NCBI RefSeq assembly: GCF_003334815.1 | Contig: NZ_QOWO01000131.1 | From: Escherichia coli | GTDB lineage: Bacteria; Pseudomonadota; Gammaproteobacteria; Enterobacterales; Enterobacteriaceae | DNA length: 391 nucleotides | Strand: one strand, 5' to 3' | Part shown: one piece after another, positions 1-391 of the stretch | Numbering within the stretch: the first letter of the stretch is position 1 | Layout: each line of letters opens with the position of its first letter | Position numbers and translations under genes: made by a program | The notes under the pieces: generated by a model | What the model was told of the DNA's origin: nothing | The model's input: only the letters and a program-made list of their open reading frames with translations | The model's database searches: none

Positions 1-75
1 CGCGAGGCATCGTCTTAACGAGGCACCGAGGCGTCGCATTCTTCAGATGGTTCAACCCTTAAGTTAGCGCTTATG
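1..75. mobile_element. Terminus of an IS186-like insertion sequence (IS4 family); element body extends beyond the window start
   Basis: + strand 53..75 reads CAACCCTTAAGTTAGCGCTTATG, whose reverse complement CATAAGCGCTAACTTAAGGGTTG matches the IS186 terminal inverted repeat as I recall it. The adjacent flank (minus strand GGGGGTAAAACC) fits the G-run/A-T core/C-run targets IS186 prefers. The boundary at 75 is approximate to about 1 bp. Identification is from memory and was not searched. Confidence 0.6.
53..75. repeat. 23-bp terminal inverted repeat of the IS186-like element
   Basis: Sequence CAACCCTTAAGTTAGCGCTTATG ends at the junction with the toxin-side flank. The second copy of the inverted repeat would lie at the other end of the element, outside the window. 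Confidence 0.55.
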
Positions 76-96
76 GGTTTTACCCCCGCGTGGTGG

Positions 97-249
97 CTAC
101 TTCTTCGATTCGTAAGCGAGAACTGCCTTAAACTCCATACCACGTTCTCTGATACTCAACTCACACAACGAGTCGCCTACCATCAGCGTGAATCCCAGTA
201 CTGTAAAACACAGCACTATGATTGCCACAAGGGCATATTTTGTCAGCAT
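97..249 (-). CDS. hokE: Hok/Gef family type I toxin (HokE-like small membrane toxin), 50 aa
   Basis: Minus-strand ATG at 249..247 is preceded by GGAGG (260..256) with a 6-nt spacer; 50 sense codons run to TAG (99..97). Translation: [50 protein letters not shown]. It has an N-terminal hydrophobic transmembrane stretch ([19 protein letters not shown]), then the conserved D-S-L-C-E block and C-terminal A-Y-E-S motif typical of Hok/Gef toxins. Closest to E. coli HokE by recollection, but not identical to the sequence I remember, so the paralogue and strain are unverified. Confidence 0.9.
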
Positions 250-252
250 GTC

Positions 253-281
253 TTGCCTCCCTGCAAAGAAGAGACTAACAT
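253..281 (+). promoter_or_regulatory. Candidate sigma70 promoter for an antisense Sok-like RNA (-35 TTGCCT 253..258, 17-bp spacer, -10 TAACAT 276..281)
   Basis: Both hexamers match consensus 4/6 with optimal 17-bp spacing. The -35 overlaps the toxin RBS on the opposite strand, which is the arrangement I recall for the plasmid R1 sok promoter relative to the hok RBS. Predicted transcription start is near 288..289. Confidence 0.35.
256..260 (-). promoter_or_regulatory. Shine-Dalgarno sequence (GGAGG) for the hok-like toxin
   Basis: Minus-strand GGAGG lies 6 nt upstream of the toxin ATG (sequence gcagGGAGGcaagacATG). Confidence 0.7.
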
Positions 282-287
282 TCGAAT

Positions 288-391
288 TGTTTGGGTTCGA
301 ACGTAAGCCTCAGGTTGTACTGACCCCAAAAAGTTGGACAGTTAAACACGAGGCATATAGGTCTGATTCCGATATTCAATTGGAGTCAGAC
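288..391 (+). ncRNA. sokE: Candidate Sok-like antisense RNA (antitoxin), complementary to the toxin mRNA leader; 3' end not defined
   Basis: Inferred from the candidate promoter and hok/sok locus architecture. The transcript would be antisense to the toxin leader and could end at the 361..391 stem-loop, but no U-tract is visible because the window ends there. Extent is speculative. Confidence 0.25.
361..391. repeat. Inverted repeat forming a 10-bp stem with 11-nt loop (GTCTGATTCC / GGAGTCAGAC)
   Basis: 361..370 pairs with 382..391. On the + strand RNA there is one G-U wobble; on the minus-strand RNA one A-C mismatch. It lies in the toxin mRNA leader and the candidate antisense RNA region. 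The window ends at the stem, so downstream context is unseen. Confidence 0.6.

Follow-up and report, generated by a model that had tools for sequence, protein, structure and literature searches.

The 391-nucleotide (nt) stretch of Escherichia coli DNA analyzed here (contig NZ_QOWO01000131.1 of assembly GCF_003334815.1; hereafter the window) is the cysH-adjacent hok/sokX locus of E. coli B. It was 100% identical to the sequence of E. coli B REL606 and likewise to ~20 further complete genomes, and it is an object of a known kind, a chromosomal hok/sok locus disabled by insertion sequence (IS) elements. Pedersen and Gerdes reportedly described such IS-disabled loci in K-12 in 1999, namely hokA, hokC, and hokE. 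A preliminary description of the window had taken the loss of an overlapping frame comparable to mok of plasmid R1 as a possible sign of decay besides the IS. Judging from the comparison of related leaders, however, the absence of a long mok, a GAGG box without a start codon, a 12-codon leader open reading frame (ORF) without a Shine-Dalgarno (SD) sequence, and a stop codon 1 nt past the toxin start are native traits of the hokE/hokX branch, not decay. In the explanation that we consider probable, this copy combines these native traits with damage by IS elements, and its intact relatives use a likely mechanism of translational coupling.

Leader reading frames in the window

In R1, mok translation is needed only to the hok initiation region, and a stop codon after the hok start is without effect; the long out-of-frame overlap is dispensable in R1 (PMC9841398). 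The R1 mok frame starts 7 nt after the GAGG and runs for 70 codons out of frame across hok, whereas in the window the GAGG has no start behind it and the leader frame is closed 1 nt beyond the hok ATG. As described earlier, the minus strand carries a short leader ORF (281..243) without an SD, which overlaps the toxin start in the sequence ATGCTGA (249..243), so that the +1 frame is closed by a TGA at 245..243. This ORF is the only ATG-initiated ORF of the leader, and the sequence preceding it, CAATTCGA, contains no SD. The statement that the GAGG at 311..308 lacks a start codon at normal spacing also proved accurate, since no ATG, GTG, or TTG was found 4 to 12 nt after it, where the sequence reads CTTACGTTCGAACC.

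Two details of the preliminary description required correction. A TAG does close the third leader frame, but it lies at 277..275 and not at 276..278, one base away from where it had been placed. Of the range described, 243-329, positions 315..329 are IS150 DNA and not hok leader, and the 28-codon ORF starting at TTG (329..243) is therefore an IS150/leader chimera. This chimera and the SD-less 12-codon ORF are the only frames that reach hok in the window. We found neither a frame that would be translated at least to the hok initiation region, nor a start codon ~7 nt past the leader GAGG, nor a long out-of-frame overlap with hok, the leader frame stopping at +4; the earlier view that a functional mok-type frame is absent from this copy is thus supported. 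A 12-codon ORF and a stop in the overlapping frame are not unusual by chance, and they gain meaning only through homologous loci.

Comparison with intact related leaders

Fifty-six related loci were fetched from species-representative genomes. Together with four complete E. coli genomes fetched separately, 54 loci with intact leaders were analyzed, representing 52 distinct leaders from Escherichia, Pseudocitrobacter, Citrobacter, Kluyvera, Klebsiella, Enterobacter, Lelliottia, Kosakonia, Phytobacter, Trabulsiella, Yokenella, and other genera. Alignment with intact loci had been proposed as the way to find a longer mok, and a long out-of-frame, SD-linked mok as in R1 was present in none of the 52 leaders. 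The G[AG]GG box and its hairpin were kept in all of them. A stop codon at +4..+6 past the hok ATG was found in 49 leaders (TGA in 39, TAA in 10) and an internal SD-less ATG at -32, -33, or -36 in 48; in 47 leaders the ORF from this ATG reached the hok start, either stopping at +4 (30 leaders) or continuing in frame with hok (17 leaders). An ATG of the R1/mokC type, 7 nt after GAGG, occurred in eight leaders (from Klebsiella, Kluyvera, and Enterobacter), and all eight frames reached hok. The traits that had been read as decay are common to intact loci of E. coli and of other genera, and that reading is not sustained; in the hokE/hokX branch, the lack of a long mok frame is unusable as a sign of decay.

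Several observations weigh against our explanation. The bases that form the short ORF and the +4 stop also carry hok codons 2 and 3, the hok SD, and the Sok promoter, which confounds any reading of their conservation. Conservation of this ORF under purifying selection in homologous loci had been named as an outcome that would refute decay; the ORF is present in the homologs, but because of the same overlap purifying selection on it could not be demonstrated. Two positions are SD-adjacent, one 7 nt past the conserved GAGG and one farther upstream near the ucb box. A start codon at one of them opened a frame reaching the hok initiation region in only 18 of the 52 leaders, and 14 had a start at neither position. 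Start codons beside ucb were found in 30 leaders at non-homologous positions, and only 10 of these frames reached the hok initiation region. Other common E. coli alleles, e.g., CGTAGCAA and CCTAAGCAA (NC101, O55:H7), have TAG, TAA, or a 1-nt indel in the hairpin loop. Finally, a 34-codon upstream frame, open from about -98 to the hok start, was found in a single leader, the 55989/K-12/REL606 allele; since it is open in one allele class only, this ORF was rejected as a conserved mok of general occurrence.

Two further analyses were set aside. In a synonymous-site test of the +4 stop, the third base of hok codon 2 showed eight changes on the tree, all between G and A (TGA and TAA being kept); the test was uninformative because other strictly four-fold sites showed 10 transitions and 1 transversion. 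The counts of hairpin stops by frame (11, 30, and 6) were non-uniform and were not used as evidence, because they are dominated by by-products (TGA in ATGAAC, TAG in GATAGT) and shared ancestry. One fetched locus had no leader at all: in Escherichia albertii NBRC 107761 (L012 1..125), unrelated sequence directly precedes GACATG of a hokX-type toxin, and this copy may be another rearranged or IS-interrupted locus at a contig end.

IS150 insertion in the hok leader

Alignment showed that homology to uninterrupted loci ends at 314/315. In REL606, the left junction joins TCTATCAACC to TGTACTG and the right junction joins CAGTACA to ACCTGAGG, with ACC duplicated at both. The uninterrupted target sequence is TCTATCAACCTGAGG, and the IS-free site is found in 55989, NC101, O55:H7, and K-12. 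The event at 314/315 is a simple insertion of IS150 with a 3-bp duplication, ACC, and the element was assigned to IS150 by this duplication and by an end identical to those of other copies; its transposase is annotated in REL606.

The insertion places IS150 between hok and the elements upstream of it: the promoter, the tac 5' end, the ucb box, and an SD with its ATG. In the 55989 allele, the ATG of the 34-codon ORF lies upstream of the insertion point, with GAGG 6 nt before it, and the ORF ends at ATGCTGA; K-12 has the same arrangement. This ORF is in the same frame as the short ORF of the window, and the IS150 cut falls after codon 11. An NCBIfam search with the 34-residue leader peptide gave no family match. 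The leader of the window (314..250) is identical to that of the IS-free 55989 locus, and no window-specific substitutions relative to 55989 were found in 243..314. It is the IS150 insertion itself that removed the coupling frame from this copy. The entry route being lost, the toxin ORF is most likely silent unless IS150 read-through supplies both transcript and ribosomes. Scanning the window for consensus promoters and terminators revealed neither an outward-directed promoter in the end of IS150 nor a terminator that could replace that of Sok.

The stop codon of the IS150 transposase (TAA, 344..342) shares the frame of the leader ORF; from there the frame stays open for 33 codons down to the TGA at 245..243, with a TTG at 329. 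An IS150-interrupted hokE (L002 3045..3160) is also open from the transposase stop through the hok start, in a different frame. Such open stretches are possibly due to chance, at roughly 1 in 4-5 each.

Two diverged paralogs, hokX of REL606 and hokE of RM9513, carry IS150 at the homologous site of their leaders, which lies between the GAGG box and the loop of the ucb hairpin. The duplications are ACC at REL606 hokX (window 312..315) and CCC at RM9513 hokE (L002 1620..1640, 3070..3085). In 'Enterobacteriaceae bacterium 89' (L056 about 60..120), an IS150-like end, …CTGTCCAACTTTTTGGGGTCAGTACA, adjoins the same leader site, ACCTGAGGC. The 70-nt junction of IS150 and hokX was matched at a coverage of at least 80% in up to 615 genomes. 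In evolution lines derived from REL606, new IS150 insertions were found beside hokC, hokE, and mokB (PMC5419217), and insertional variation is a point on which Pedersen and Gerdes (1999) are cited by PMC11264685. The hok leader site thus looks like a strong hot spot for IS150 insertion. Recurrent, site-specific insertions of IS150 and IS186-type elements in hok leaders and 3' hairpins agree with earlier reports and with the evolution data (PMC5419217).

Leader RNA structure

The window scored 41.6 bits against the Rfam sok/hok-leader model RF01794, below the threshold of 59, because its 5' part is IS150; the uninterrupted 55989 allele scored 113 bits over the full model length. The uninterrupted 55989 leader begins near GGGTGCTTGAGGC, behind a TAGAAT box. 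Predicted folding of the intact 55989 mRNA reproduces the R1 scheme. In the predicted full-length mRNA, the 5' GGGUGC pairs with the 3' GCACCC ahead of the terminator (tac/fbi), and ucb, AGCCCCAGG, pairs with the GAGG region, CCUGAGGCU. In the predicted 3'-shortened mRNA, a local 5' (tac) hairpin forms, and a 41-nt hairpin arises from the pairing of GAGGCU with AGUCUC (dcb). The z-scores of the folds were -3.8 for the full-length and -3.4 for the 3'-shortened form. GAGG 311..308 is therefore the structural counterpart of the R1 mok SD. Within the window, the tac/fbi pairing is lacking, since both of its elements lie beyond IS150 and IS421; of the alternative pairings of GAGG, the GAGG (311..308) and dcb (276..271) are present, and ucb lies beyond IS150.

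The predicted Sok-target hairpin consists of an outer stem, GAGGCU/AGUCUC, an inner stem, ACGUUCGAA/UUCGAAUGU, and a loop, CCCAAACAA. Folded one by one, all 52 leaders formed the GAGG-dcb hairpin, with energies of -11 to -25 kcal/mol. In eight sequences GAGG/UCUC was replaced with compensation by GGGG/CCCC. Per-sequence folding was used because indels in the hairpin arms and loop defeated the RNAalifold alignment of 54 leaders, whose consensus was limited to the outer pairs between GAGG and dcb and to one small, invariant helix where hok starts.

No part of the leader changes faster than the loop of this hairpin (window 287..295), whose length varies by 1 nt and which often contains TAA or TAG; 42 distinct hairpin interiors were found among the 52 distinct leaders. 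The stem arms co-vary, e.g., TTCGAA/TTCGAA, ATGAAC/GTTCAA, and CTCCAAA/TTTGGATGG. The loop variation may reflect diversifying specificity of Sok-hok pairing.

Antisense RNA SokX

The 59-nt SokX of K-12 (b4701) covers exactly the part of the leader between the upstream ATG and the hairpin loop, to which it is complementary; its 5' end in the window was placed by mapping this K-12 annotation. The -10 box of the candidate promoter, TAACAT (276..281), is the complement of the ATG of the short ORF. A strict promoter scan of the window did not pick up this weak promoter candidate. The window does not contain a complete Sok gene (promoter, target-complementary body, and terminator), as IS150 splits the promoter and the first 26 nt from the terminator.

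Translational coupling in intact relatives

For the intact relatives, our analysis favors, with modest confidence and by analogy to R1, translation-driven unfolding of the leader with termination at or near the hok AUG. Ribosomes would enter the leader at whatever start the allele offers and unfold the GAGG/dcb hairpin together with the structure that surrounds the hok SD. They would then either stop at the UGA or UAA 1 nt past the hok AUG or read in frame into hok, leading to hok initiation. SokX would block entry because it is complementary to the whole entry region.

An alternative that we regard as unlikely, yet worth weighing, needs no leader ORF: hok would initiate from its own strong SD (GGAGG, 6-nt spacing) after 3' processing refolds the mRNA, with Sok triggering cleavage and decay of the duplex and the leader ORFs being incidental. 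In its favor, start positions are unconserved, 14 of 52 leaders lack a start at either SD-adjacent position, and the hairpin loop freely carries stops and indels. The replacement of the R1-like ATG by TCG in E. coli hokX, with compensation in the opposite arm, likewise suggests selection on structure rather than on a start codon. By contrast, GAGG is kept at the R1 mok-SD position in every leader together with its ucb and dcb pairings. All eight R1-like starts open frames that reach hok, two of them using a frame that only 13 of the 52 leaders keep open. Also against direct initiation, coding sequence pairs with part of the hok SD and AUG in the predicted fold, and in R1 coupling is required experimentally (PMC9841398).

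We put forward tentatively a further reading, which we rate as rather improbable. The coupling frame of the hokE/hokX branch would be defined by its end and not by its start, so that frames with interchangeable starts converge on the stop 1 nt past the hok AUG or fuse in frame with hok, and alleles with a stop in the loop relay by re-initiation. Three start positions were seen: R1-like after GAGG; an upstream ATG, GTG, or TTG beside ucb; and the internal SD-less AUG. Read-through from IS150 feeding the re-initiation relay in interrupted copies is a side possibility.

We consider it quite improbable that the 12-codon ORF is itself the coupling frame of the clade, translated, opening the hok SD region, terminating at the UGA, and allowing re-initiation 4 nt upstream at the hok AUG, in which case the window would keep the full device. 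It is the most conserved leader ORF, its ATG being kept in 48 of 52 leaders and its frame reaching the hok start in 47 (30 at +4 and 17 in frame), and the +4..+6 stop kept in 49 survives even CTG-to-CTA changes, which turn TGA into TAA. Where the upstream ORF of an allele terminates in the hairpin loop, the internal ATG follows ~9 nt later, and a re-initiation relay is conceivable. However, the ORF has no SD and its ATG is base-paired inside the predicted hairpin stem. A coding explanation is not needed for its conservation, as its ATG complements the Sok -10 box TAACAT and its body is the hok SD and the Sok -35 box, and the all-transition pattern at codon 2 is the same as at other four-fold sites (10 transitions to 1 transversion). 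Moreover, ATA replaces the internal ATG in the Klebsiella oxytoca group, in Enterobacter sp. JUb54, and in a Pseudocitrobacter paralog.

Loss of the coupling frame of this copy by point mutation, independent of IS elements, is highly improbable: the canonical start 7 nt past GAGG is absent, with TCG where Klebsiella, Kluyvera, and Enterobacter loci have ATG, but this TCG is common to every Escherichia hokX locus fetched (hokE has CTC there), so that any loss of that start is old and clade-wide and not a lesion of this copy, and the 241-nt hok core (314..74) is 100% identical in several E. coli genomes, with leader 314..250 matching IS-free 55989.

Reviews that we found give nothing specific on a defined mokE or mokX, and a recent survey of Hok diversity set the question of mok equivalents aside as 'not trivial' (bioRxiv 10.1101/2025.08.07.668861).

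Toxin gene and 3' side

The toxin ORF belongs to the small hydrophobic toxins of the Hok/Gef family. It matched Pfam PF01848 (HOK_GEF) at 3.5e-11 and the NCBIfam Hok models under their equivalog cut-offs, and its product is named 'Hok/Gef family protein' in RefSeq and REL606. Its ratio of nonsynonymous to synonymous substitution rates (dN/dS) relative to relatives was 0.07-0.32, which indicates purifying selection across genera; the hok loci of these genera are therefore not generally dead. The stretch containing the hok SD, GGAGGCAA, was invariant in 53 of the 54 aligned loci, and the remaining locus (L050) has GCAGGCAA. Matches to the Rfam models mir-101 and Ocean-VII within the hok coding sequence were far under threshold and were dismissed as chance.

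On the 3' side, an IS186/IS421-type element is inserted in a GC-rich hairpin 22 nt past the hok stop codon, the same place as beside K-12 hokC and hokE. The fbi element and the terminator are missing from the window; the intact 3' end is GGTCTCCTGCACCCTTTTTT. The terminal repeat typical of IS186/IS421 (IS4 family) is present. The far flank of the element, GGGGTTTTTCCCC, is not hokX 3' untranslated region (UTR), and no target duplication was found. In REL606 (L001 4305..4339, 5633..5680), the GGGGTTTTTCCCC flank is followed by the first CRISPR repeat; the whole cas operon and the CRISPR leader of 55989 and O55:H7 have no counterpart in REL606, which suggests an IS-associated adjacent deletion.

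Table 1. Positions of the features identified in the 391-nt window
Feature	Position	Strand	Basis
End of IS186/IS421-family element, terminal repeat ATAAGCGCTAACTTAAGGGTTG, boundary within 1 nt	1..74		Inverted repeat; annotated IS421 transposase
hok 3' UTR remnant, half of GC-rich hairpin GCGGGGGUAAAACCCCGC	75..96	minus	Alignment with intact loci
hok-family toxin coding sequence, 50 amino acids, stop TAG 99..97 (hokX paralog)	97..249	minus	ORF list, Pfam, NCBIfam, REL606 annotation
SD-less short leader ORF, ATG 281..279, 12 codons, TGA 245..243	243..281	minus	Sequence, ORF list
sokX promoter candidate: TTGCCT, 17-nt spacer, TAACAT	253..281	plus	Read from sequence; 7 nt upstream of SokX 5' end
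hok SD, GGAGG, 6 nt ahead of toxin ATG	256..260	minus	Sequence and alignment
Sok-target hairpin, equivalent of R1 mok-SD/dcb stem	271..311	minus	Predicted in 3'-shortened intact mRNA
TAG closing third leader frame (frame used by mok in plasmid R1)	275..277	minus	Sequence
First 26 nt of SokX; other ~33 nt, including terminator hairpin, beyond IS150	289..314	plus	Mapping of K-12 annotation
GAGG, positional and structural homolog of R1/mokC mok SD	308..311	minus	Rfam alignment, folds, comparison
ACC, 3-bp target-site duplication of IS150	312..314		Second copy at left junction in REL606
Right end of IS150 (…GGGGTCAGTACA), transposase stop TAA 344..342	315..391	minus	REL606 annotation; identical end at RM9513 hokE

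Comparison with known hok/sok systems

The locus resembles R1 hok/mok/sok (parB) in its Hok/Gef toxin, in a leader with tac, ucb, GAGG box, and dcb, in the position of Sok over the entry region, and in the pairing of the 5' and 3' ends (fbi) in the intact allele, the one that matches the Rfam sok model at 113 bits. Unlike in R1, tac, ucb, fbi, the promoter, and the Sok terminator of the window have all been removed by IS elements.

K-12 hokC/mokC/sokC is similar in having an IS186-type element in the GC-rich hairpin ~20 nt past the stop codon. Its mokC also differs from the long out-of-frame ORF of R1, being an in-frame 19-codon extension of hokC. It differs from the window in its canonical ATG 8 nt after GAGG and in the lack of IS150 in the hokC leader. 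In the K-12 annotation, mokC is read in the frame of hokC, but mokB is an out-of-frame ORF, so that the length and frame of mok vary.

The closest paralog is hokE/sokE (K-12; RM9513), to which the 391-nt window aligns at 87% identity and which has the same leader layout. It shares the IS186/IS421-type element at the same 3' site and, in many strains, an IS150 at the homologous leader site (CCC). By contrast, hokE lies at a different chromosomal site, ybdK-entD, its box is GGGG instead of GAGG, and a 4-nt insertion before the ATG puts the upstream and internal ATG frames in frame with hokE, giving an 83-codon ORF. In K-12 hokE (L006 1454..1705), the ATG has GAGG 9 nt upstream, and the 83-codon ORF amounts to a 33-codon N-terminal extension that is unannotated in RefSeq. 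A frame of this type was open in four of the five Escherichia hokE loci examined.

K-12 sokX (b4701) is the same locus as the window, with the same hairpin-loop allele and a leader nearly identical up to the hok ATG. In K-12 MG1655, the full leader survives, with sokX annotated as a small RNA gene, and the hok coding sequence is gone, whereas REL606 keeps hok and has its leader and sokX split by IS150. The K-12 deletion begins right after the hok ATG, where …GGCAAGACATG is followed by TGTATATCAC (L007 410..520, minus strand), and the 34-codon leader frame runs on into unrelated DNA past the deletion point.

Genomic context and distribution

In REL606, the gene order is cysI, cysH, IS150, hok, IS421, CRISPR array, and iap. 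In IS-free strains, hok has cysH on one side and on the other either cas3 (55989, O55:H7) or iap (NC101). E. coli B strains (REL606 and relatives) are widely used in experimental evolution, and their locus should be annotated as a disabled hok locus and not as a working toxin-antitoxin pair, because the intact ORF is left without promoter, regulatory RNA ends, and antitoxin terminator.

Among 5,426 complete E. coli genomes, the hok core of the window was found at an identity of at least 95% in 3,873, and several other E. coli genomes carry the 241-nt core (314..74) without any difference. An uninterrupted leader was present in 5,291 of the 5,426 genomes, and the 55989-type leader allele, at an identity of at least 99%, in at least 2,287. 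The hok/sokX module beside cysH was reported in ~90% of the uropathogenic strains surveyed (PMC12736100).

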